Shown: in pieces, positions 35,909 to 48,222 of the stretch
How the letters are laid out: each line of letters begins with the position of its first letter
How positions within the stretch are numbered: position 1 is the first letter of the stretch
Program-made: the position numbers and the translations under genes
The notes under the pieces: model-generated
Told to the model about the DNA's origin: nothing
Databases searched by the model: none
The model's input: only the letters and a program-made list of their open reading frames with translations
NCBI GenBank assembly: GCA_963770895.1
Contig: CAVYRF010000002.1
Location: forward strand, 2,528,001 to 2,592,000
DNA length: 64,000 nt
Source of the DNA: an uncultured Acidobacteriota bacterium
Lineage (GTDB): Bacteria > Acidobacteriota > Thermoanaerobaculia > Multivoradales > UBA5704
Direction: 5' to 3'

Positions 35909-36324
35909 TCACCGGCCCGTGCGGGCCGCAAGCAACCTGCGAAGGCTTATAAGGAGCCATTTTATTGGAACCTGGAATGGGCGCAAATACCAGAAGCGCC
36001 GCGACATGTAGGACCTCATCAGAGTGTCGCGCCAGCGATTGGCTGCGGCTTCGCGCACGTTGTAGTCTTTTGATAGCGCTCGGTCGATGTGATGACCGAT
36101 CTCGTGATAGAGGGTTCGCGACACAAGGGCTTCCCGAACTGCACTGCGCCGCAGAAGCCATACGGGCCAGCCATGAGCAATGGCGTCAATGTAGAGGTCT
36201 ATAGCCGCTGCCCTCGCAGCCCCTGGAGACGAGCTGAAGGCACGGCTTGCACCAGACACTCAACCGTCCCATGGAAGTCGATTGGTAGGTTGAACGTCCC
36301 AAAGTCATCAACAACTCGCACCAT
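35909..36324 (-). pseudogene. Interrupted HExxH (zincin-like) protein in the low-GC tail of the toxin locus
   Basis: The 5' piece MVRVVDDFGTFNLPIDF...LQGLR (36199-36324) stops; another frame continues AIDLYID...LYHEIGHH...RFWYLRP. Confidence 0.5.
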
Positions 36325-36409: not shown

Positions 36410-36964
36410 CTAAACCCAGCGCTCGATCCCAAGGCTACCGAGCTCGCCCGCGAGTGCATGAATCTCCTGCTCGCGCGGGGTATACACCTCCATGTAGTTG
36501 TCGTGGCTTGTGTAGACGACCAAGGCCGCCGGGATTGAGATCACATGTGCGTCGAAGCCGAATGCGATTGCCAGGCGTGCCATGCCAAGTGCCAATGCAT
36601 ATTCCGTCTCGTCAAACAGGTGGCAAGGCGCTTCCTTGATCCAGCGCCGTTCTCCGTATCCGGCGCGGACTGCTCTCCACAAATCAGCGAAGCCGCCCCC
36701 CCTGACATCCCAATCCAAAAGCCAGATCGCCCATGACCTGGCACTTGGAGCCGCTTGAAACAGTGTGTCAACCAGCCTCGCTTGCAGGACTGAGGAATCC
36801 GGCAATTTCAGCTGAAGCGCTTCCGACTGAACTTGCGCAGGCAACGCCGCGCCGTCAGTCGACTGCTGGGACAAAATAAAACCCGCATAGAGATCCTCCT
36901 CATCCATCTTGATCCCTCGCGCTAGCAAGTAGGCGGAGCCCTCAGCAGCAGTAAGGCATATCAT
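36410..36964 (-). CDS. Hypothetical protein, candidate immunity protein
   Basis: First intact ORF downstream of the RHS toxin; lower GC; no signal peptide; W-rich motifs R..YGE....EAPCHLF, FGFDA, SHD. Confidence 0.62.
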   Translation of the reverse strand: MICLTAAEGSAYLLARGIKMDEEDLYAGFILSQQSTDGAALPAQVQSEALQLKLPDSSVLQARLVDTLFQAAPSARSWAIWLLDWDVRGGGFADLWRAVRAGYGERRWIKEAPCHLFDETEYALALGMARLAIAFGFDAHVISIPAALVVYTSHDNYMEVYTPREQEIHALAGELGSLGIERWV

Positions 36965-37161
36965 CGTGGTCTCATCCTGGTCAGATTCGAAAAGGCCTGG
37001 TGCAATGGCGAGAACGCCTGGCCCAGGTCCTCTGCGAGCTGGCACCGAGCATCAGCAAAACTTCGTTATCTATTAACATGCCTAGTCTCGCTTCCTAGCG
37101 CGCCAAGAGCGCGAGAAAAATCAACCCTGTCGCCAAGGCAGGTTCGGAAAGTGGGCGCAAG

Positions 37162-40100
37162 TTAGCCACTTGAGCCATCCGTCGAAGGTGCCAGCGGACA
37201 GCCGGGTAAGAACGGCAGTAGTATGCAAGGGCTAATAATCGGAAATAGCATTGGAGCAAAAGGATCTGGAGGTTCGATGCCGAGGGGCGCGTCTTGCGGA
37301 GTTGGCGCTGGGTGTGCCTCCGAATCTGGGACTTCATTGCCAACTTCATCCAACTTCCAGGATCTATTGCCATCGTTCAGGTCCCAGTGATCTTTGCCGA
37401 TTGCACGTCTGCCACCAGGATTGAATGGCCCCTTAGGCTCCTTGTGCCAGCTGCACTCGAGCTGAGTACCTGGGATTTTCCACTTTCCGCCACGCTTGTC
37501 TTGAGGATTGTTGATCCAACGCCAAGTCCCATTGGGCATCTGCGGCACCCCCTGCGGCTGGCCTTCAGGTGTTGTTGGTCCATAACCGGGGGGCAGCGGT
37601 GACGGTGGACCAGGCGGATGCGGTGTCCATCCGTCCGGATCGAATAGGTTGAGTGGGTCGTTTAAAGAATACGCATACAGATCGGAGCCAGCCGTTGCTG
37701 CGCCATCGCGGCTTTCCCAGCGGCCCAGATTGGGGTCGTAGGCGCGATATTTGGTCAGGTTGAGGCCGGAGGGCGAGTGGTAGTACTGGCCGGCGAAGCC
37801 GAAGCGGGGCGGGGTGCCCTGGTTGATGGTGAGGCGGCCCCAGGGGTCGTAGTCGTAGCGGCTGACGACGGTGCCGCTGGTGTTGGTGACTTCGCGGACG
37901 CTGCCCAGGTGGTCGTAGGAGAAGTAGTAGTAGCTGGGGCCGGACTGCATGCCGTTGGGGAAGAAGCGGGTCAGGATGTTTTCGTTGGGACAGGTGATGG
38001 TGTCGACGCCGGGGATGGCGGTGGCGGTGCCGCCGTAGTGCACGCTGATCGAATGGGCGGAGCCGGTATAGATCGAGAGTGTCGAGTAGGTGAAGCCGTG
38101 ATCGCCGTTGCCGATGCCGGCGTTGAGCAGGTCCTGGCGGAAGGTGCCGGCGGCGATGGTGGCAAGCAGGGTAGTGCCATCGTAGATGTCGACATCGATG
38201 GCATCGTTTGGTTCATTGGCATCCCAGGCCCAGCCGGCGATCTGGGTGCAGTCGGCGGCGTCCAGGTTGCCACCGAAGCTGGGGGCCGGGCAGGTGAGAT
38301 CGATGGTGCCGCCGATGGGGATGCTGGTGCCACCGATCTTGAGCGAAACGGTGTGCTGAGTGTTGGTCTTGAAGGCGACCGGGGTGTTGAAGAAGAATCC
38401 GTGGTTGCCGTTGCCGATGCCGGCGTTGAGCAGATCCTGGCGGAAGGTGTTGGCCTGCACGGCGGCGACCGGCGTGGTGCCGTCGTAAATGTCGACATTG
38501 ATCGGCGCATCGGGCTGGTTGGCGTCCCAGGCCCAGCCGGCGATCTGGTTGCAGTTGGCGGCGCCAAAGGAGCCGGAGAAGCTGGCCTGGGCGCAGGTCA
38601 GGGTCTGGGTGCCGAGCACAAAGGTGCTGCCGCTGGGAGTTACGGTGACGGTGTGCGCGGCGCCGGTCTTGAGCGATGCCGGGGTGTTGAAAAAGAAGCC
38701 GTGGTTGCCGTTGCCGGCGCCGGCGGCGCGCACGTCGGCGCGGAAGGCGCTGGCCAGGGTGGTGGCGGTCTTGGTCGAGCCGTCGTAGATGTCGACGTCG
38801 ATCGGCGCGTTGGGGGTGGCAGGGTTCCAGGCCCAGCCGACCAGCTGGTCGCAGTGGATGTAGTTGACCCCGCCCAGGGGCACCGGTCCGAGGCCGGGCG
38901 CGGTCGTGGCGTCGGTCTCTTCGGCGATCTGATCGCCGATCCAGATGTAGTGGCGACTGGTCTGCGCCACGCCGTTCAGCTTTTCGGTGATCTGCACCCG
39001 CCGGCCCAGGCCGTCGTAGGTGAACTCGCTGCGCTGGGTGCCGATGTTGATCGCGGTCAACCGGTTTTCGGCATCCCATTCGTAGGTGCGGGTGCCGTCC
39101 GACAGGACGTTGCCGTTGGCGTCGTACTGAAACGCCGCACCGCCGGCGGTGGTCACCACGGCGGTGGCCAGTGCCTGCACCTGCGGGTCGGCGTGGCTCG
39201 CGGCCGTGATGGTCACCGCGCCGTCGGTCGAAGGCGCGGTGAACAGACCGGTCGGGTCGATCGTGCCGGCCGAGGCCGACCAGGCGACCGTGGTGTCGGC
39301 GGCGCCGGTCACGGTGGCAGTGTACTGCTGCATCGCGCCGGCGGCCATGGGTACCTCGGCCGGCGTGATGCTCACCGATACAGCTGGAGCGGTGCTTACC
39401 GTGATCGTGACCACCCCCTGCACCGGACCTCCGGCGTCGGTCGCCTGGGCCACGACGTGGTAGACGCCCGGCGTCGCCGGGGCGGTGTAGACGCCGGAGC
39501 TGGAAACGATGCCTCCGCCGGCGCCCTCTTCGACGCTCCAGGCGACGGCCGGATTGATCACACCGCTGACCCGGGCGGTAAACGTCTGGCTGGCGCCCGG
39601 CGCCAGGCTGGCCGACGAGGGCAGCAGGATCAGGTCTTCGCCCACCGTGACGGTGCCATTGCCGGACTTGGTCGGATCGGCGGCCGAGGTGGCGGTGACA
39701 GTGTAGACACCTGGCGTTGCCGGAGCGGTGAACAGACCGTTGGCGGCGATCGCCGCCGGCGCCGGCCCGGCCACCGACCAGGTGACGGCCTGATTGGGGT
39801 GCGGCGCGGCGTTGACATCTTCGACCACCGCTGTGAATGGCTCCTGCTGACCGGAGTCGATCACCGACCGCGCCGGCGATACGGCGACGCCGGCGACCGG
39901 CATGGCGCTGTCGACCGCGACCTGTGCGGTGCCGGTAGCCGCCACCGGCCCACCGGCGGTCTGGGCGGTGACTGTATAGGTGCCGGGCGCAATCCCCGCC
40001 GGGATCTGCAACGCTCCGGCGGAAGAGACGGTACCGCCGGGCATATTGGTAGACCACTCCACCGCCTGCTGGCTGCCGGTGACGTCGGCCGCAAACTCGA

Positions 40101-40809
40101 CCGCGGAGCCGGGCGTGGCCACGACCATGTTCGGCGTGACCATCATCACGACCACGTTCACCGTTGCGACCGCCGGATTCAGGCCTTCGTTGACATCGTC
40201 GTCATTGGTTACATAGACATGGAACACGCCGCCTGGCTGGTTGACAAAGTGTTCGTATACGCCTGTCGGACCGTCTCCGAAGCCTCCGCTTCCGACGGCT
40301 TGCCCGTTGGGATCGTCGGTGAACCAGATGTAAGAAGGGTTGGTCGAATTGACCACGCTGGCGGTGAAGGTCACAGGCTGGATGCCGGCGACCGTCGCAC
40401 TGGTGGGCGAAATGGAGGTCGTCGGCGGCGCCGGGACCGTGATCGGAAAGGAAGCGGTGACCGAGTCGGCACCAGCGTACAAGACGAAATATCCCTGGGT
40501 CGTACCCGCGGTGACCGTAACCTTGTTGCCATTGGGTGCCAGCGTCAGACCGGTCGGCGGGACGACCGACCAGGTGATGGGGTCGAAGATGTCGTACACG
40601 TTCGCGGTATACACCTGCGATTCGGTCTGATCGAGGATTGATGGACCGCTGATGGTGATGCTGGGCGGCTGCGCCGCCAGACGCGGCCCAGCTGCCCAAA
40701 CCGCTCCAGCCGCCGCCAGCGCCATCAGCACACGACGCATCCGCGGCCACCGCCCACTCCGCCCGTTTCGGTCGCCGGCGCCGGCTGCCGCCAAGATCTC
40801 AGTTTTCAT
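37162..40809 (-). CDS. Secreted RHS protein chain B: signal peptide, Ig-like repeats, YD repeats, RHS core, C-terminal toxin
   Basis: RRVLMALAAAGAVWAAGPRLAA signal; Big_2-like repeats; YDANGN/YEWDAENRL/YDGLGRR; DHLGSVR, YDYDPWG, RAYDPNLGRW, NDPLNLFDPDG; AAGGAGG RBS. Confidence 0.9.
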   Translation of the reverse strand: MKTEILAAAGAGDRNGRSGRWPRMRRVLMALAAAGAVWAAGPRLAAQPPSITISGPSILDQTESQVYTANVYDIFDPITWSVVPPTGLTLAPNGNKVTVTAGTTQGYFVLYAGADSVTASFPITVPAPPTTSISPTSATVAGIQPVTFTASVVNSTNPSYIWFTDDPNGQAVGSGGFGDGPTGVYEHFVNQPGGVFHVYVTNDDDVNEGLNPAVATVNVVVMMVTPNMVVATPGSAVEFAADVTGSQQAVEWSTNMPGGTVSSAGALQIPAGIAPGTYTVTAQTAGGPVAATGTAQVAVDSAMPVAGVAVSPARSVIDSGQQEPFTAVVEDVNAAPHPNQAVTWSVAGPAPAAIAANGLFTAPATPGVYTVTATSAADPTKSGNGTVTVGEDLILLPSSASLAPGASQTFTARVSGVINPAVAWSVEEGAGGGIVSSSGVYTAPATPGVYHVVAQATDAGGPVQGVVTITVSTAPAVSVSITPAEVPMAAGAMQQYTATVTGAADTTVAWSASAGTIDPTGLFTAPSTDGAVTITAASHADPQVQALATAVVTTAGGAAFQYDANGNVLSDGTRTYEWDAENRLTAINIGTQRSEFTYDGLGRRVQITEKLNGVAQTSRHYIWIGDQIAEETDATTAPGLGPVPLGGVNYIHCDQLVGWAWNPATPNAPIDVDIYDGSTKTATTLASAFRADVRAAGAGNGNHGFFFNTPASLKTGAAHTVTVTPSGSTFVLGTQTLTCAQASFSGSFGAANCNQIAGWAWDANQPDAPINVDIYDGTTPVAAVQANTFRQDLLNAGIGNGNHGFFFNTPVAFKTNTQHTVSLKIGGTSIPIGGTIDLTCPAPSFGGNLDAADCTQIAGWAWDANEPNDAIDVDIYDGTTLLATIAAGTFRQDLLNAGIGNGDHGFTYSTLSIYTGSAHSISVHYGGTATAIPGVDTITCPNENILTRFFPNGMQSGPSYYYFSYDHLGSVREVTNTSGTVVSRYDYDPWGRLTINQGTPPRFGFAGQYYHSPSGLNLTKYRAYDPNLGRWESRDGAATAGSDLYAYSLNDPLNLFDPDGWTPHPPGPPSPLPPGYGPTTPEGQPQGVPQMPNGTWRWINNPQDKRGGKWKIPGTQLECSWHKEPKGPFNPGGRRAIGKDHWDLNDGNRSWKLDEVGNEVPDSEAHPAPTPQDAPLGIEPPDPFAPMLFPIISPCILLPFLPGCPLAPSTDGSSG
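37985..38875 (-). repeat. Three tandem ~90-aa beta-domain repeats inserted inside the RHS region
   Basis: C..(L/I).GWAW(N/D)..P..I.VDIYDG.T...FR.D...AG.GNG.HGF occurs three times with high DNA similarity. Confidence 0.85.
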
Positions 40810-43800
40810 GGCCGCCCTCCTTGACCGCGCCCGAGGGGGTCTTGGCAACGGTTCCATCCTGCGGAGGGCCCGGCTTCGCGGAGCGCACGCGCTCCATCTG
40901 CACCGCATTCTGCGCCTGCCAGGCCAGGCCGCTCTGCAGCGTGATCAGCTGGTTGGCTCCGTCGAAGGTCGCCGTCGACAGCGCGCCGTCGATGATCTCG
41001 CTGGTGCGGTTACCCGTGGCGTCGTAGGTGAAGGCGTTGTTGTGCAGCGTTGTCACCGGCGACTGCACCGGATCGGTCGTCTGCTGCCGTGCCAGCAGCT
41101 GCTGCGCTCCGTCGTAGGTGAAGTCGAAGAAGCGCCCGCCGGGGTTGTTGAGGTCGTGCCAGGTCAACCCCACGATCTGCTGGTGCGCCGGGTCGTACGA
41201 GTAGTTGAACTGCGACAGGTTGTAGCCGTTCGTCGTCGATCCCCAGGTGAGCTGCGACAGCCGGAAGTCGTGCGCCACATCCAGGTAGCTGTAGGTGGGC
41301 CCCTGTCCGTTGGGGTACGAAAGCGCCGTCATGCGGTTGGACGATCCGGCGTACGACGCGGTGAACCGGCCGAGCGGGCTGGTCATCGTCGCCAACCGGT
41401 CCTGGCTGTCGAAAGTGCGCGTCTGAGCGATCCCGTCGAGCGTCTGCCCGACCTGCCGCCCCAGCACGTCGTACTGATAGGTGATCGCATGGTTGGGCGC
41501 CGGCGCCGTTACGCTCGCAACTTGCCCAGCCCCCAGGACACCCCCGGGATTGTAGGTGTAGGTTGTCGTGCCGATCCCGTCGGTCATCGACAGAAGCCGC
41601 GGCAGGTTCAGGTCGTATTCGTACTGCACGCCCGGCGTCGGATGCACTGTGTTCTGATAGCTGGTCGCCGCAAGCAGATTGTCGATGGTGTATGCATAGT
41701 TGGTCACCTGGTTGAGTCCGTCGGTGCGGCGCACCAGGCGGCCGGCGCTGTCGAAGCTGTACTGTGCCACCGTCTGGCCGTTGACCTGCTTGCCCACCAC
41801 CCTGTTCAATCCGTCCAGCATCCAGGTCGTCAGGTTGCCGCGCGGATCGGCCACCTGCGACAGCGCTCCGCATCCGCACCACGAATAGGTCGTCGTACGC
41901 CCCAGCGGATCGGTGATCGACATCAGACGGTCCGCCGCATCGTAGGCGTAGGCCGTCACTCGCCCCAGGCGGTCCTGCGCCGCTACCACGTCCAGACGGT
42001 TGAACACCACCTGGTCGGCGGAACCGTCCGGGTAGGTGATCTCGATCAGACGGTCCAGGTTGTCGTAGCGGAAGCTCAGCGTGTAGCCGTCCGTCGAGGT
42101 CCAGGTGGCGAGCCGGTTGGCGCCGTCGTAGGTATAGCTCTCCTGATACTGAGTGCCGGCGACCGCCACATTGGTCAGAAAGCCCCGGCCGTCATAGGTG
42201 TAGTTGGTCGTCACGCCGTCCGGCCGCTTCGCCGAAGTGAGCTCGCCAAAGGCGTTGTAGGTCATCGTGTAGGTCTGCCCCGCATCGTCCGTGTAGGTCA
42301 GCGGCCGGTGGTTGCCGTTGTAGGTATAGCTCGCCACCGTCTCGTGCACAGCGTTGATCACCGTCGACACGTCGGCGTAGCTTGGCGGCGCGTAGATAAA
42401 TGTGGTCTTGCGCCCGGCCGGATCGTAGGTCCACTGCGGTCTGCCGGCACCGTCCAGCGTGGCGCTGTAGACCTGTTGCTGGCCATTGTCCAGCACCCGC
42501 GCCACTGTGCTTGGCGTCGACAGCGTCCCCTGGTAGCTGTCGGCCGTCTCCCCAGGATAGGAAAACCACAGCCGCCGCTCCCCCTGCGGCTGCATGAAGC
42601 CGGGAATCGACGACACCGCCGTTTCGCTCTCCGTCGCGTCACGCACCCAGTGGATCGTGTAGGTGGCGTTCAGATACCGGTTGGGATCCGACGGGTTGTA
42701 GCTCTGCATCGCCGTCTGGTTCCAATAGTAGGTATTGCGGTACGCCAGGTTCTCGTTGCCGAAGCCGGCGGGAATCGGCTCGGTGGTGGTTTCGGGGATG
42801 TTCTGCGCCTCGTGCGTGAACTCGATCCGCTCCGTACTGCCCAGCGGATCCGTCGCCACCAGCCAGCGGCTGTCGCCCAGATCCGTATTGACGCACGGAG
42901 GCGCCTCACCCATGCCGAAGCTCGTGGTGCCGTAGGGCGTCGTCATCGCGTTCATGAAGTCGGTCGGAACGCCGAACGCTCCCGTGCAGAGCGGACCCGG
43001 CGGCTCGGTCGCCAGCGGTCCGTAAGTGAACGACGAGGTCATCCCCACCGCATCCGTGATGCTCTGCAGCTCGCCGTTCGCATACTGGAACACCGCCTGC
43101 CGGCCAAACGGATCGGTCACCGCTGTCAATTTGTATGGATCGCCGGACAACCCATAGCTGAGCGTCGTCTGCTGCCCCACCGGATCGGTGATCGTTACCA
43201 GGCGCATCGATGCGTCATAGGTTAGGTTGACCGAGTTGCCATACGGATCGGTCGCCTGGGTCAGGAAGTATTTGCGCATCGTGGTCGCGCCGTCCGACTG
43301 GCCGTAGGTTTCGACTGCACCGTCCGGGTAGACGCGCTGGAACCCCGTCGTGTTCGGACCATTGAGGGTATCCTGCACAAGGCGCATCGCGGTCTCGTGC
43401 GAACCGCCGATGTTGGGACCGTACTCCCACCATAAAGTGGTCGACACCTGGCTCAGGATGTAAGAGCCGCCGCCGCGCTCCGCCACGCGGATCGTGCCGC
43501 CGGTCTGCAAGGGATTGTCGTCTTCGACGTAGGACAGCCAATCGAAGTTCCAGCGCGAACCCAGGTTGGTGAAGAGGAACGTCTGCGGCTGGAAGTCTTC
43601 GCGGCTGTTGTAGGTGATGCCGAACCGCATCGCCGGACCGACCGGCGGCGTGTAGCCCACCGGCTCGTCGGTGACGTTCAAGCTCACCGGCGCGGTGTGG
43701 AAGTTGTACACCGGCATGCCGGTGTTCGCGCCGCCGCACTGCCCCGGCTTCTTGGGGTCGGCCGGCGTGGTCGCCCCCGGATTGGGATTGGCTGCGGCTC

Positions 43801-44830
43801 CCTGGCCGTGCACCCCTGCCGCTTCGGCCTCCGCCACCTCCCTCCACCCCTGGCGCGGCACGCCCCCCGGCACCGCGGCCAGCAGGTAGCCCGACGACTC
43901 CTCTTCGACCGCTGCGCGGCTCAGCCAGTGATCGTCGCCAAAGGTCAGATCCTTGACCAGGAACCGGTCGCCCTGCTGCGCCACCACCGCCGCGAAGTGG
44001 TCGGCCTTCCAGTGCAGCACCGCGGGCACCGGAATTGGCGACCCCGGCTCGCGCTTGACCGCGTACAGGCCCAGTCCGGTCTGCCGCGCGAGCTTCACCA
44101 GCTCGCCCAGCGAGGTGCCGCGCTTCGTCGATCGGTACCGCAGCACCCGCGGATCGGGCGCCGCACCGGGATGCAGCACTTCCGCCACGCGCTCCACTGC
44201 CAGCGGCCCGCAGCGGAACGAGCTGCCCGGGTCGTGTCGCATCTCCCACAGGCTGGAGCGCGCCCCCAACACCATCTCGGCGACGTGACCGGAAAGCGGC
44301 CTGGTCGCCGCCACATCCAGCAGCGCCGCCAGCGCATCGGTGCGCCCCAACGAAGCATCGATCTCGATCTCGACCGCCAGAGCCGCGTCGGCGATCTTGC
44401 GCGCCGCAGGGTCGGTGGACGCCGCCGCGCGCCGCCACGCCGCGCTGGCCGCCGCCAGCGCCCGGTCCAGGTAGCCGGTGTGGCGGTAGAGCACCGCCAG
44501 GTCGGCCTCGAGAGACGGCGCCCAGGCCGAGCCCGGGTGCCGTTCCAGGAAACCGGTCAGCGGTTCGACCGCTTCGACGTCGGCCGCCGCCCGGTAGGCG
44601 CGGATCGCCGCGGCCAGCTCGCGCGTCTCGTCTGCCGCGGGCGCCCCCACCGCCACCAGCGGCTCCGCGAAGGTCCGCCCCTCTTCCGGGCGATCCAGCG
44701 CAGGAGGAGCACCGCCCGGTGCCGCCAAGACCATCGTATCGCCGGACGCCGCGGGCATCGCCCCCGCCGCGCCCGCCAGGAGAGTTGCCGGACCGACCAA
44801 CATCAGCATCACGCCGAGACGCAGATTCAT
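40799..44830 (-). CDS. Secreted RHS protein chain A: signal peptide, peptidase C39-like domain, RHS/YD repeats, no RHS core
   Basis: MNLRLGVMLMLVGPATLLAGAAGA signal; RCGPLAV, LHWKADHFAAV, VKD triad; many YD repeats (TDPYGN, YDASMRL, YDAADRL, YDVLGR). Confidence 0.88.
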   Translation of the reverse strand: MNLRLGVMLMLVGPATLLAGAAGAMPAASGDTMVLAAPGGAPPALDRPEEGRTFAEPLVAVGAPAADETRELAAAIRAYRAAADVEAVEPLTGFLERHPGSAWAPSLEADLAVLYRHTGYLDRALAAASAAWRRAAASTDPAARKIADAALAVEIEIDASLGRTDALAALLDVAATRPLSGHVAEMVLGARSSLWEMRHDPGSSFRCGPLAVERVAEVLHPGAAPDPRVLRYRSTKRGTSLGELVKLARQTGLGLYAVKREPGSPIPVPAVLHWKADHFAAVVAQQGDRFLVKDLTFGDDHWLSRAAVEEESSGYLLAAVPGGVPRQGWREVAEAEAAGVHGQGAAANPNPGATTPADPKKPGQCGGANTGMPVYNFHTAPVSLNVTDEPVGYTPPVGPAMRFGITYNSREDFQPQTFLFTNLGSRWNFDWLSYVEDDNPLQTGGTIRVAERGGGSYILSQVSTTLWWEYGPNIGGSHETAMRLVQDTLNGPNTTGFQRVYPDGAVETYGQSDGATTMRKYFLTQATDPYGNSVNLTYDASMRLVTITDPVGQQTTLSYGLSGDPYKLTAVTDPFGRQAVFQYANGELQSITDAVGMTSSFTYGPLATEPPGPLCTGAFGVPTDFMNAMTTPYGTTSFGMGEAPPCVNTDLGDSRWLVATDPLGSTERIEFTHEAQNIPETTTEPIPAGFGNENLAYRNTYYWNQTAMQSYNPSDPNRYLNATYTIHWVRDATESETAVSSIPGFMQPQGERRLWFSYPGETADSYQGTLSTPSTVARVLDNGQQQVYSATLDGAGRPQWTYDPAGRKTTFIYAPPSYADVSTVINAVHETVASYTYNGNHRPLTYTDDAGQTYTMTYNAFGELTSAKRPDGVTTNYTYDGRGFLTNVAVAGTQYQESYTYDGANRLATWTSTDGYTLSFRYDNLDRLIEITYPDGSADQVVFNRLDVVAAQDRLGRVTAYAYDAADRLMSITDPLGRTTTYSWCGCGALSQVADPRGNLTTWMLDGLNRVVGKQVNGQTVAQYSFDSAGRLVRRTDGLNQVTNYAYTIDNLLAATSYQNTVHPTPGVQYEYDLNLPRLLSMTDGIGTTTYTYNPGGVLGAGQVASVTAPAPNHAITYQYDVLGRQVGQTLDGIAQTRTFDSQDRLATMTSPLGRFTASYAGSSNRMTALSYPNGQGPTYSYLDVAHDFRLSQLTWGSTTNGYNLSQFNYSYDPAHQQIVGLTWHDLNNPGGRFFDFTYDGAQQLLARQQTTDPVQSPVTTLHNNAFTYDATGNRTSEIIDGALSTATFDGANQLITLQSGLAWQAQNAVQMERVRSAKPGPPQDGTVAKTPSGAVKEGGHEN

Positions 44831-45165
44831 GCCATGCTCCCTTCGAATGCGATCACAAACTCTTTGTGGGAGCGGCGCAAAAAGGCCCCGCTCCCATCGG
44901 CTCCGACTGCCCGATTCCGCTTCAGGCATGTATACGGGCGGTGAGTAAATAAGGTTACACGAATTTCTTGCAACGATGGGTAGCCGCGGCCCCTTGGCGG
45001 GCTCGCGGAGCCCGATAACAAAAAACGGCCGCCGCTGGCCTGGCGCTCCTGAAGCTTCTCGCGTTCGTGGTCGGGAGTGGTGTTTTCGATCTGGGCGCGG
45101 ATCTGCTGGACCCGGCCGGCGATCGCTTCACGCCGCTTGGCGTTCCCGGAGTTGGTGACAGGCCG

Positions 45166-46999
45166 CTAGCTGCGGCCGGCGCTCCACTGCGCGGTTTCGG
45201 CGGCGCAGACCTCGTCGAGGGGGCTGGGGACGGACAGCCAGTTGCCCTGGGCGTAGTCGACCCCCAGGGCGCGCAGGCGATCGACCGCGGCGCTGCCGGG
45301 CACCATCTCGGCGACGGTCTGGATGCCCATGACGTGGCTGACCTGGTTGATCGATTCCACCATGGCGCGGTCGAGCGGGTCGTTGACGATGTCCTTGACG
45401 AACTTGCCGTCGATCTTGAGGAAGCTGACCGGGATGTCGCGCAGGTAGGAGTACGACGACATGCCGGTGCCGAAGTCGTCCAGCGCGAAGCGCACGCCGA
45501 TCGCCGACAGGCCGCTGATCAGGCGCTCGGCCTGCTGCAGGTTTTCGATGGCGGCCGTTTCGGTGATCTCGAAGCAGATCTTTTCGGGCGGCACGCAGGC
45601 GGCGGCCAGCTCGTCTTCGATGTAGCCGAGCAGGCTTTCGTCCGACAGCGACACCGCGGACAGGTTGATCGAGCAGGTGTCGAGCGCCTGCAGGAACTGC
45701 GGCGGCTGGGCTGACAGGTTGCTGGCGCAGGTGTGGATCACCCAGCGATCGAACGCTGCGCATCAGGCCGTAGCGTTCGGCGGCGCGGATCAGCTCGCTC
45801 GGCAGGTGGACCCTGCCGTCCTCTTCGATCATGCGCAGCAGCACCTCGAAGAAGATGCCGCGCCCGGCGCCGGCGCCCAGCGGGTGGATGCGCTGGCAGA
45901 AGAGCCGGAAGCGGTCCTGCTCCAGGGTCTGGCGGATGCGCAGCACCCAGTTCATTTCGCCGTGGCGGCGGATGAAGGTGGCGTCGTCTTCCTGGTAGAC
46001 CTGGATGCGGTCGCGCCCCTTCTCCTTGGCCACGTAGCAGGCATGGTCGGCGGCGGACAGCAGGTGGGCGATCGACTTGAAATCGCGGGTGATCGGCACC
46101 AGGCCGATGCTCGCCGCGACGGCAAAGGATTTGTCCTGCCAGTTGAAGCGCAGCTGGCGCAGGGCGCGCTGGAGCTTGCGCACCTGCCCTTCGGCGGCCA
46201 GCAGCGAGGTGCGCGGCAGCAGCATGCCGAATTCGTCGCCGCCCAGGCGGGCCACCGGGCCGCTGTCGCGGATCACGTCCTGCAGCAGGGCGCCGACGCG
46301 GCGCAGCAGCTCGTCGCCGGCCAGGTGGCCGCAGGTGTCGTTGACCAGCTTGAACTGGTCCAGGTCCATATAGCAGAGGGCGTGGGTGGTGCCCTCGCGG
46401 GTGGTCTCCTCCAGGCAGCGCTGGAGGTGGCTGTCGAAGGCCTGGCGGTTGAACAGCCCGGTGGTTTCGTCGTGGCTGGCCTGGTGGGCCAGCTGCAGCG
46501 CCAGCAGGCGCTTGTCCGACACGTCCTGAAACACCAGCACGGCGCCGATGATGCACGCGTCGTGGTCGCGGATCGGCGAGCAGACGCTTTCGATGGCGTA
46601 GCGCCGCCCGTCGCGCCGTTCGAGCGTCAGCCGCTCCGCCAGGCGGACGCTCACCCCCTGCGCGACGGCGCGGCGCACCGCGTCGGCGGCGCTGGTGCCC
46701 TGGGCGGCGCCGCCGTCCGCTTCGCCTTCGGCCCCTTCCGCCAGGCGGAAGACTTCGTGCAGCGGGCGGCCGGCGGCCTCTTCGCGCGTCCAGCCGGTGA
46801 TCCTTTCCGCCACCGGGTTGAGGTACTTGACCACGCCGGACGGCGCGGTGGTCAGCACGCCGTCGCCGATCGAAGCCAGGGTCACCTGGGCCAGCTCCTT
46901 TTCGGCGTAGAGCTCGGCCATCTGCTCTTCGTAGGCGCGGGTGGTTTCGGCGAGCAGGCGGCGCACGATCGCCAGCTCCAGGTGGTCGGGCTGGCTCAT
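45166..46999 (-). pseudogene. PAS-GGDEF-EAL c-di-GMP enzyme with a +1 frameshift near 45752
   Basis: TLASIGDGV PAS, HDETTGLFNR, RLGGDEF, EVLLRM; EAL half (SINLS, FEITET, LDDFGTG, LKIDG, AQG) lies in another frame. Confidence 0.85.
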
Positions 47000-48222
47000 G
47001 CGGCCGCGCGCTCCGACAGCAGCACCAGGATCGCCGTCTGGTTGTAGAAGGCCAGGTCGCCCCGGTCGGTAGGACCGATCTCGGCGAAGGTGAAGAAGCC
47101 GGACAGGGCGGCGCCGCCCAGGGCGGCGGCGATCGACGCCGGCTCGACGCCGGCGCTATCTCCCAGAACCACCTCGCGGCCGACGCAGGAATAGAGGATC
47201 GCCGCTTCCGGCCGACCGGCGCTCGCGGCGGCCGCGGGGGCGGCGGAGGCGCCGGCGGCGGCGGCGGTGCGCGCCAGCGACAGGTCGTTGCCCATGCCGA
47301 GCCGCACCCGGTCGCCGGTTTCGATGCTGCCCCAGAAGGTGACGGCGCCCGGCGGCTGGTCGAAGAAGCGCATGCTGCGATAGACCCCCTGGCGGTCGGC
47401 GCCCGGCCCTTCCAGGATCAGCGGAAAGCGGTAGGCGGATTCGGGCATCGGCGCCAGCTGGCCGTCCACCGTGAAGAAGCGCCGGTACCAGTCGGTCGCG
47501 GCGACGCCGTCGATCTGGAACGCGACGTTGCCGGCGGCGCGGTCGACGGTATAGACGGGCGACGCCGGGTCCCAGCCGCGCACCACTTCGATGCGCATCT
47601 GGACGCCGTGGAACAGCACCGCCAGGCAGGCCGAGGCCAGCACCCGCTCCTGGAAGAAGACGCGCGCGCCGGGCTCCGACACCGGTTCCCGTTGCGAGGC
47701 CAGGCCGCCGGCGACCAGCGGCTTGACGGTCCCCCCCGTTCGGCCCGCGCCGCCGGGCGCTTCGCCGCAGGCGGCAAGGTGATGCCGCAGGTCGGTCAGG
47801 AACCGCTCGATGGGGAAGCGCAGGCCGTCCACCAGCAGCAGGGCGCCGTCGGCCGCCGCCAGCCGCCGGGCGAGGGCGGCCGAGCGCTCGGCCGGCGGCG
47901 GCGATTGGTGGCTGCCTTCGATGACGTCCACCGCGGTGCTGTGGCCGGGCACCGCGAACCAGAACAGCTGCACGCTGCCCGAGCAGGTCAGCGCCTGGTC
48001 CGCGAACTGCGTCACCGCCTCGCAGCCGAAGCGCAGGCTGCCCGGCCACAGGGCGGCCATGGTGGCGAGCGTCGCCGGCAGGTGCTCGTTGGCAGGCAGG
48101 AAGGCGAGCGCCAGGTCGGGCTGGTGACCGCGCAGCGCGCTGGTGGGGGGCAGTTCGCCCGCTTGGCGCAGAAATTCCGCGGGACAGGGTCCAACGGGCA
48201 GCTGGACAGTTCGGCTGTGCAT
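46996..48222 (-). CDS. FIST-domain sensory protein (NosP-like)
   Basis: LLLVDGL, VAGGLAS, GWDPAS..YTV, FPL, YSCVGR, SGFFTFAEIGP, FYNQTAILV. Confidence 0.82.
   Translation of the reverse strand: MHSRTVQLPVGPCPAEFLRQAGELPPTSALRGHQPDLALAFLPANEHLPATLATMAALWPGSLRFGCEAVTQFADQALTCSGSVQLFWFAVPGHSTAVDVIEGSHQSPPPAERSAALARRLAAADGALLLVDGLRFPIERFLTDLRHHLAACGEAPGGAGRTGGTVKPLVAGGLASQREPVSEPGARVFFQERVLASACLAVLFHGVQMRIEVVRGWDPASPVYTVDRAAGNVAFQIDGVAATDWYRRFFTVDGQLAPMPESAYRFPLILEGPGADRQGVYRSMRFFDQPPGAVTFWGSIETGDRVRLGMGNDLSLARTAAAAGASAAPAAAASAGRPEAAILYSCVGREVVLGDSAGVEPASIAAALGGAALSGFFTFAEIGPTDRGDLAFYNQTAILVLLSERAAA

Follow-up and report, generated by a model that had tools for sequence, protein, structure and literature searches.

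Can two adjacent genes, each with its own predicted export signal, together encode one RHS toxin? The question is raised by a locus in a 64,000 nt stretch of DNA (hereafter the window) from an uncultured bacterium of the Acidobacteriota (GenBank assembly GCA_963770895.1, contig CAVYRF010000002.1, positions 2,528,001 to 2,592,000). On the minus strand of the window, gene A encodes a C39 peptidase domain followed by a long series of YD repeats, and the overlapping gene B encodes immunoglobulin-like (Ig-like) modules, further YD repeats, an RHS-associated core and a variable C-terminal domain (Table 1). Comparison with related loci indicates that this is probably a polymorphic RHS toxin in which evolution has divided a single polypeptide between two translationally coupled genes, followed by an immunity gene. 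In alignments, the break sits at a predicted shell loop that single-chain relatives leave uninterrupted or fill with one Ig-like domain.

RHS shell sequence divided between two genes

Residues are numbered here by the longest open reading frames (ORFs), which span 40799-44929 for A (P0001) and 37162-40908 for B (P0002). The gene-caller start is M34 in both, placed at 44830 for A and at an ATG at 40809-40807 for B. The YD repeats of A are matched by RHS_repeat in seven stretches (E 5e-50) and also by YD_repeat_2x, and residues 829-1158 align in a sequence search with the shells of solved Rhs structures (for example 8qjd, 8h8a and 7q97). Searches of A with Pfam and NCBIfam models returned no Rhs_assc_core. 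The core resides in B, where TIGR03696 (Rhs_assc_core) matches residues 1020-1093 (E 1e-17) and residues 992-1093 align with the final ~105 residues of solved Rhs cores (8qjb, 8qjd, 8h8a and 7q97), the alignment stopping precisely at their cleavage site. Residues D1090 and G1093 of this core are invariant. B also resumes the YD repeats (RHS_repeat, E 5e-12), and in fused relatives these strands are continuous with the A-type shell.

The shell is shared unevenly, because B contributes just the final strands and the core plug. Specifically, A carries about nine tenths of the shell, and the part of B is limited to ~80 aa of YD strands and a ~113-aa core. These are also the best conserved portions of B when conservation is expressed as the fraction of alignment rows with the majority residue, with values of 0.82 for the YD strands and 0.80 for the core. 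The Ig modules reach 0.66 and the three repeats 0.62, and the toxin is lowest at 0.30. In A, the C-terminal tail has a value of 0.44, versus 0.62-0.72 for the remainder of the protein.

Two insertions distinguish B. One is a series of six Ig-like modules, of which 13 of the 15 possible pairs are similar at E <= 0.03. The other consists of three repeats (residues 676-978) that are 47-58% identical to each other, that carry cysteines at 686/772, 786/873 and 887/973, and that match no Pfam family. This second insert is found in two related loci of other genomes (L014 and L015) and is missing from two more (L013 and L016).

Both proteins begin with a predicted signal peptide. The hydrophobicity test for the A leader is positive in five of the seven copies in this genome; of the other two, p5 is frameshifted and the true start of p4 was not located. 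For B, the leader of the window copy contains a hydrophobic 11-mer with a Kyte-Doolittle (KD) mean of 2.41. Basic residues, an 11-residue hydrophobic stretch (KD mean 2.0-3.25), an Ala-rich site and then the first Ig module are found in 10 of 11 B N-termini, the exception being a deletion copy (p7, KD 0.99).

An original prediction, made from the letters of the window, had described A as a leader, a C39-like domain and a YD run ending at TFDGANQL with no RHS core, and the domain searches and the KD test bear this out. Its account of B was right about the separate leader, the resumed YD run, the core and the toxin, although the 'about five' Ig repeats become six when judged by module similarity and the three Cys-pair repeats between the YD strands and the core had been missed. 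A junction with a strong ribosome-binding site, the ATG of B and the stop codon of A reads in the sequence just as had been described. The proposal that the shell is split over two genes likewise stands, with the qualification that its sharing is very uneven.

The A/B junction recurs at other loci

At the window locus, the frames of A and B are both open across 40799-40908, with B at +1 relative to A. The junction, read as the reverse complement of 40799-40822 (AAGGAGGGCGGCCATGAAAACTGA), contains the Shine-Dalgarno site AAGGAGGG, the ATG of B and the TGA of A. Contigs assembled from three soil-metagenome runs (X1, 40634-41047; X2, 40742-41400; X3, 40728-40881) span 40799-40811 with no inserted or missing letter.

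The window genome (8.16 Mb in 3 contigs, 94.95% complete) carries seven paralogous A-B loci, namely the window copy (w) and p2 to p7, which match at 57-71% identity; taken by gene, the values given are 62-71% for A and 59-63% for B. A and B occupy separate frames in every one of them. In w and p2-p5, A ends ...G(G/S)HEN and the ATG of B is embedded in CATGA(A/G)AACTGA, and in p6 the A stop and B start overlap as ATGA with B in the other frame. Four loci from other genomes, L013 and L014 (both from one Acidobacteriota metagenome-assembled genome, or MAG) and L015 and L016 (from Thermoanaerobaculia MAGs), place the Shine-Dalgarno site inside the end of A. There the B start overlaps the A stop as GTGA or TAATG and is followed by a Sec-like leader and Ig modules. 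All 10 intact Ig-stalk loci, six in the window genome and four elsewhere in the Acidobacteriota, keep a Shine-Dalgarno site, a stop/start overlap or near-overlap (B start <=11 nt from the A stop) and a Sec-like leader. The frame of B relative to A is +1 in five of these loci (w, p2-p5) and +2 in the other five (p6, L013-L016).

Chance can be excluded as the source of this arrangement because it recurs in six further loci of the genome as well as in other genomes. Two explanations would do away with an evolved second gene. The break could stem from an assembly or sequencing frameshift, or this copy could be a pseudogene of a single-chain gene; A and B do lie in adjacent frames that both stay open through the junction, and true frameshift-type breaks exist in fused relatives (L024, L025 and L031). 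This account is scarcely credible, given that six paralogs and four loci elsewhere have this break, at differing frame offsets, together with a leader, a start codon and a Shine-Dalgarno site, that the contigs of three runs show no indel at the junction, and that a shell read through in one frame would be interrupted midway by a leader-like hydrophobic segment and ~45 unconserved residues. The overlap of the frames could also reflect a programmed ribosomal frameshift, or reinitiation, that yields one fused A-B polypeptide. We consider this highly improbable, because the offset is not constant, no shared slippery sequence is evident, and what is kept is the equipment of independent initiation. 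An error, a recent pseudogene and a programmed frameshift are therefore all very unlikely, since the frame offsets vary and what is conserved serves independent initiation and export. As judged by these comparisons, the division into A and B is well supported as an evolved two-gene arrangement with a predicted export leader on each chain.

The split form within a large, mostly single-chain family

Among 5.8 billion proteins searched, 21 clusters have 43-100% identity to A, of which 18 are A-sized (1285-1367 aa). The architecture of B is shared by 15 B-type clusters. More distant relatives hold the A-type part and the core on a single chain, as in P0024 (1569 aa, from a Verrucomicrobiales MAG) and P0025 (1749 aa), and two larger proteins (P0030, 2462 aa; P0031, 2781 aa) have a large insert with a LysM-like match. 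In P0024 the equivalent of the last YD repeat of A runs straight into the equivalent of the first YD repeat of B, and P0025 has an insert of ~85 residues at the same point.

A scan of one genome per species identified 48 loci. The A-type part and the core share one frame in 29 loci and occupy separate frames in seven; the remaining 12, mostly at contig ends, were not judged. Fused genes thus make up 29 of the 36 evaluable loci. Their full-length ORFs range from 1486 to 1852 aa, and the gap at the break loop is either near zero or about 73-96 residues, corresponding to no insert or one Ig-like domain. The seven separate-frame loci comprise the four Ig-stalk loci (L013-L016), L024 and L031 with frameshift-type breaks, and L059, a short degenerate copy. 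We rejected L024, L031 and L025 (the last from the unjudged group) as independent splits, as their breaks are of the frameshift type, in fused-type genes with no new start or leader. One of these, the fused-type gene at L031:11851-11930 in an Acidobacteriota MAG, has a 15-nt tandem duplication with a TAG in its one-Ig insert, in the same loop.

Residues 177-1376 of A were used in an exhaustive HMMER search of 1.84 billion cluster representatives, and the best 150 were classified. The core is on the same protein in 116 representatives, 23 end about where A ends, seven are cut earlier and four fit none of these classes. The single-chain proteins range from 1213 to 6193 aa in length (median 1705). 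The C39 domain is found in 147 of these best 150. About 15 of the 23 A-only representatives (in P0160-P0272; 39-45% identity) have a natural-looking tail of 30-45 basic, Pro/Ala/Lys-rich and unconserved residues after the last YD repeat. Such a tail may do no more than carry the ribosome-binding site for the gene that follows, or it may make contact with B.

A maximum likelihood tree was built from the plug-to-break region of 34 sequences (23 fused, 11 split) by an IQ-TREE quick search under LG+G4. Six fused loci (L036, L038, L039, L041, L047 and L055), which lie at contig ends, are interrupted or have no YD match, were left out, as were broken and truncated loci. All 11 split rows, from soil Acidobacteria, fall into one clade with an approximate likelihood ratio (SH-aLRT) support of 100, so one change is enough to explain them. 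The family is distributed over Verrucomicrobiota, Acidobacteriota, Planctomycetota and Proteobacteria. Fused C39-RHS genes also occur on contigs of MAGs labelled Bifidobacteriaceae (L020, L027, L040 and L047) or Nitrososphaeraceae archaeon (L026), taxa in which they are not expected, and these group with Verrucomicrobiota in the tree, which suggests mis-binning rather than transfer. Among 40 genomes related to that of the window, the A gene is present in just three, two of the nine from the same genus and one from a different genus in the family. Such scattered occurrence is in keeping with an accessory toxin.

We found no published description of the C39-RHS family in literature searches, although supplementary files, which lay outside their reach, may list such architectures. 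Likewise, the terms 'split Rhs', 'bipartite Rhs' and 'two-component Rhs' did not occur in the literature searched, supplements excepted.

These results bear on further statements of the original prediction. That the split evolved and is not an error agrees with the junction elements kept in 10 of 10 intact loci, with the varying frames and with the single clade. The read check it had proposed came out in favour of separate genes, with contigs of three runs from one study containing no indel that fuses the ORFs. The suggested search for homologues led to the one clade of split forms, and it also revealed that the C39-RHS combination is not special to this locus but belongs to a large and mostly single-chain family. 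Finally, a lack of any link to a type VI secretion system (T6SS) had been noted, and the searches described below concur.

Table 1. Features of the A-B locus in the window (all on the minus strand; residues in the numbering given in the text)
Feature	Position	Strand	Residues	Description
Gene A	40799..44830	-		1343 aa from M34 (P0003); signal peptide, helical domain, C39 peptidase, plug and YD shell, basic tail
Signal peptide of A (predicted)	44750..44830	-	about 34-60	hydrophobic 11-mer, KD mean 2.09, Arg before it
Helical TPR-like domain of A	44234..44677	-	85-232	AlphaFold2 helices at model residues 42-195, pLDDT >90
C39 peptidase domain of A	43865..44233	-	233-355	triad C240, H311, D327
Plug and YD-repeat shell of A	40937..43729	-	401-1331	~930 aa, ends at motif TFDGANQL
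C-terminal tail of A	40802..40936	-	1332-1376	45 residues, poorly conserved; last codons hold the Shine-Dalgarno site and ATG of B
Shine-Dalgarno site AAGGAGGG	40815..40822	-		5-6 nt 5' of the ATG of B (40807-40809); A stop at 40799-40801
Gene B	37162..40809	-		1215 aa from M34 (P0039); signal peptide, six Ig-like modules, YD strands, three repeats, RHS core, toxin
Signal peptide region of B (predicted)	40669..40809	-	34-80	hydrophobic core near residue 60; LAAQ right before the first Ig module
Six Ig-like (Big_2-type) modules of B	39148..40668	-	81-587	Pfam Big_2, I-set, Ig_3, PKD
Resumed YD strands of B	38905..39147	-	588-668	~80 aa; YD_repeat_2x at 611-641
Three ~100-aa repeats of B	37969..38904	-		between YD strands and core; each with one bracketing Cys pair
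RHS-associated core of B	37630..37968	-	981-1093	~113 aa, ends DPDG then W
Variable C-terminal toxin domain of B	37165..37629	-	1094-1248	155 aa; conservation 0.30
Candidate immunity gene	36410..37045	-		211 aa from GTG; an internal ATG gives about 184 aa

A C39 peptidase domain behind the predicted leader of A

The N-terminal region of A was modelled with AlphaFold2 (residues 58-400, alignment of 37 sequences), giving a mean predicted local distance difference test score (pLDDT) of 87.9 and a predicted template modelling score (pTM) of 0.83. In the model, a helical repeat domain is followed by a papain-like domain. The helical region has weak TPR matches in Foldseek, and a Pfam search assigned no family to it. 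The papain-like domain corresponds to a Peptidase_C39 match (PF03412, residues 240-352, E 1e-5, above the Pfam cut-off), and its best Foldseek matches are the double-glycine peptidase domains of ComA (5xe9), LahT (6mpz) and PCAT1, with template modelling (TM) scores of 0.60-0.64 on the target; the ComA match has an E-value of 8e-4 and a TM score of 0.64.

C240 and H311 are invariant and D327 is nearly invariant in the 37 sequences, and all three are invariant in an alignment of 20. The peptidase looks catalytically competent, because the predicted triad is kept and its His-to-Asp spacing is 16. As the domain is located after the leader, it would therefore act outside the cytoplasm. Double-glycine peptidases usually cut after GG, GA or GS. 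No conserved GG leader was seen in B; in the 20-sequence alignment, an invariant G-x-G (G375 and G377 of A) lies in the low-confidence, disordered linker past the C39 domain. Pfam and NCBIfam searches found no ABC transporter domains in A.

The toxin domain and its candidate immunity gene

Similarity among the paralogs ends right after the core, and the tails that follow differ between them. Orphan B-type cassettes occur 3' of several loci. By these features, variable tails and downstream orphan cassettes, the loci follow the usual pattern of polymorphic toxins. The window tail has no Pfam match at E <= 5 and no PDB sequence match at E <= 10. In the Atlas its best score is 0.83 with low recognition, which serves as a lead only, and MafB, Ntox21 and Ntox37 clusters score 0.77-0.80. 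A suspected resemblance to a colicin-E3-like motif was borne out by no search and was dropped.

The 211-aa ORF that follows B is likely to be the immunity gene, as judged from its counterparts. One of these, 33% identical, lies directly after the toxin of L015, which is itself 40% identical to the window toxin, and a 43%-identical copy is present in the orphan region of p4. The ORF has no Pfam match. A further ORF of 116 aa at 35909-36259 (-) in the window has an HEIGHH motif and a sub-threshold Zincin_1 match (E 0.025), and a 224-aa ORF that follows p5 contains a counterpart with 45% identity. The 116-aa ORF could be an accessory gene, another immunity gene or a remnant of an orphan.

Three orphan B-type pieces were located in the window genome (G000), after p3 (C2:1555283-1556872), p2 (C2:2989084-2989587) and p5 (C2:649059-650064). 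The p3 orphan begins at the YD strands (B residue ~580) and continues through the repeats and core into a different toxin tail, and the p2 piece has an internal TAG.

Genome context

Neither A nor B contains a PAAR or VgrG domain, or an SpvB or beta-propeller domain, according to Pfam and NCBIfam. The T6SS sheath gene VipB/TssC has no match in the 94.95%-complete genome, with a positive control in E. coli. A search of the genome for TcA_TcB_BD gave no match, but the control for this search was also silent. In a search for a secretion partner within 6 kb either side of 11 loci, no gene was shared upstream, and downstream the loci had only immunity-like ORFs and orphan cassettes in common.

Directly upstream of A in the window (45128-48222, -) are genes for a 623-aa PAS-GGDEF protein, which also matches EAL weakly and in part, and for a 408-aa FIST N+C protein, and neither gene is conserved at other A-B loci. 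At G000:C2:2972020-2972409 (-), ~7 kb upstream of p2, a strong Peptidase_C39 match (107 bits) lies in a 1420-aa open frame. This frame probably encodes an ABC-type exporter, and none of the other loci showed a neighbour of this kind.

How two chains might form one toxin

The features of A and B suggest a route by which they could act together. Coupled translation would yield matched amounts of the two proteins, and the predicted leaders would direct both across the inner membrane unfolded via Sec. Outside the cytoplasm, the YD strands of B would extend the open sheet of A and the core of B would close the shell round the toxin, after which the aspartyl autoprotease of the core would cut the toxin free after DPDG. 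A and B would thus form a non-covalent two-chain cocoon like TcB/TcC, divided elsewhere. The Ig arm and the three repeats appear to be loop insertions, which would be expected outside the shell as candidate binding modules. The C39 domain, which is also present in fused relatives, probably processes its own protein or a partner, with the invariant G-x-G as candidate cleavage site.

On the whole, a single cocoon made from two chains and displayed on an adhesin-like stalk is plausible as a proposal. A fuller version of it can be offered tentatively and is open to real doubt: two unfolded, Sec-exported chains would form an RHS cocoon outside the cytoplasm, B threading in the toxin and closing the open 1,300-aa shell of A with the last strands and the plug. 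A free six-Ig arm and three disulfide-bracketed modules of B would stay at the surface to bind the target, and the extracytoplasmic C39 domain would serve as the trigger for opening or release.

Several observations weigh against these proposals. The signal peptides were judged by the KD hydrophobicity heuristic and by eye. No conserved neighbour that would explain passage through the outer membrane was found near the 11 loci. The three contigs that span the junction all come from one study, possibly the source of the assembly itself, and are not independent; contig support for the junction is weak for this reason. No RNA run that covers the junction was found. No classical conserved double-glycine site for the C39 domain was found, G375-x-G377 not being of that kind, and any role given to the domain is a guess. 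In addition, two of the seven paralogous loci are damaged. The p5 copy (G000:C2:653401-660662), which aligns with p2 over 7.5 kb at 93% identity and with 32 gaps, has frameshifts in A that split it near the N-terminus, so that residues 28-212 and 209-1376 of the query match separate ORFs. The p7 copy (G000:C2:5442924-5449270) is 98-99% identical to p6 (G000:C1:532266-539788) and has a 1109-nt deletion over the junction that removes the last ~140 codons of A, the junction itself, the start and leader of B and the first Ig modules; it is a recent duplicate, broken already. Not every copy is therefore maintained.

The proposal that is hardest to set aside would have both chains exported with no rebuilding of a cocoon. 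A would then be an open shell with a peptidase, acting as helper, chaperone or processing factor, and B would be the effector, an Ig-rich adhesin with a toxin behind a vestigial RHS core. B does have its own leader and a long Ig arm, as do many other secreted Acidobacterial proteins, and orphan B-type cassettes that begin at the YD strands exist with no adjoining A, such as the one after p3. Moreover, the binding of A to B and their closure into a single shell are presumed from sequence comparison. Nevertheless, we think this arrangement unlikely. The ~80 aa of YD strands and the core of B cannot form a shell alone, and in 29 fused loci they are the direct continuation of an A-type shell. Their standing as the best conserved parts of B fits a structural contact, and the order and coupling of A and B are kept in 10 of 10 intact loci. 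Alternatively, A and B could be the B and C subunits of a Tc-type (ABC) toxin that relies on a TcA-like translocator encoded elsewhere. A capsule of two RHS chains recalls TcB/TcC, and YenC2 and TccC2 are among the weak matches to the core. This possibility is improbable, as A and B have neither an SpvB nor a beta-propeller domain, carry predicted Sec-type leaders, which TcB and TcC are not known to have, and are divided at a different position. A polymorphic RHS toxin divided by evolution into two coupled genes is thus the reading that we prefer.

Comparison with known RHS systems

To our knowledge, TcB/TcC is the only accepted two-chain RHS capsule, and it assembles in the cytoplasm. TcB/TcC resembles the capsule predicted for A/B in being an RHS/YD shell made from two polypeptides, with the variable toxin on the second one along with the RHS core and its aspartyl autoprotease site. 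However, TcB and TcC divide the shell far more evenly and are not known to have Sec leaders, whereas the A/B break is only ~190 shell residues before the cleavage site, so that the second chain adds the last strands and the plug. A/B also differs in having no SpvB or propeller domain, in its predicted Sec-type leaders and in its N-terminal C39 peptidase. TcB/TcC is the closest functional analogue, and the single-chain C39-RHS proteins are the closest relatives by descent. The latter (for example P0024, P0025 and L018-L057) share with the A-B pair a leader, helical domain, C39 triad, plug, shell, core and variable toxin and are 34-40% identical to A over its full length. Unlike A-B they are one polypeptide, with no insert or one Ig-like insert of ~75-95 aa at the break loop.

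Rhs effectors of the T6SS also have a YD shell and RHS core and give sequence matches to A and B. In contrast to A and B, they are single chains with PAAR, prePAAR or VgrG-binding N-termini and no signal peptides. Examples are RhsA of P. protegens, Tse5, Tse15 and Tre23 (PDB entries 7q97, 8cp6, 8uxt and 7pq5). In structural studies, the fragments of these effectors reportedly remain together non-covalently after self-cleavage. WapA-type proteins of Gram-positive bacteria are Sec-exported RHS polymorphic toxins with a signal peptide and no T6SS. WapA is a single chain with cell-wall-binding repeats, and differs from A-B in having no C39 domain and no second gene.

The C39 domains of ComA, LahT and PCAT1 have the same fold and Cys-His-Asp triad as that of A, including the His-to-Asp spacing of 16, but the domain of A is not fused to an ABC transporter and follows a predicted Sec leader. 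C39 peptidases usually carry a Gln six residues before the catalytic Cys; this Gln is not present in A. Papers that pair C39 with an RHS repeat did not, in the parts of them covered and supplements aside, describe an RHS protein with an N-terminal C39 domain. Zhang et al. 2012 (PMC3482391) count C39-like peptidases among the toxin domains found at the C-terminus of polymorphic toxins, and the passages of that paper covered here do not describe N-terminal C39 modules of RHS proteins. In giant genes of Omnitrophota, C39 domains stand beside signal peptides at the N-terminus of very large secreted proteins, and the covered text of that report proposes that C39 cuts the giant protein into pieces (10.1101/2023.11.21.568195). 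As far as that text goes, its self-cutting proposal is a parallel to the C39 role proposed here.

Implications for RHS toxins

The locus points to a large family, apparently not yet described, of RHS toxins that depend on Sec, carry a C39 peptidase at the N-terminus and have no link to a T6SS. Its natural forms mark a permissive site on the capsule surface: some have no insert there, others have one Ig insert or large inserts, and at the far end of the series is the split with its Ig arm.

The current view is that RHS capsules enclose the toxin while one chain folds. A clade with predicted export signals on both chains, where the chain bearing the toxin contributes no more of the shell than its last strands and the plug, bears on whether an RHS shell can close after translocation across a membrane. 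The same clade bears on how much of the shell must be covalently joined to its cargo. If two exported chains do assemble the cocoon, these loci would represent delivery of an RHS toxin that depends on neither a T6SS nor TcA, and a natural two-piece encapsulation system.

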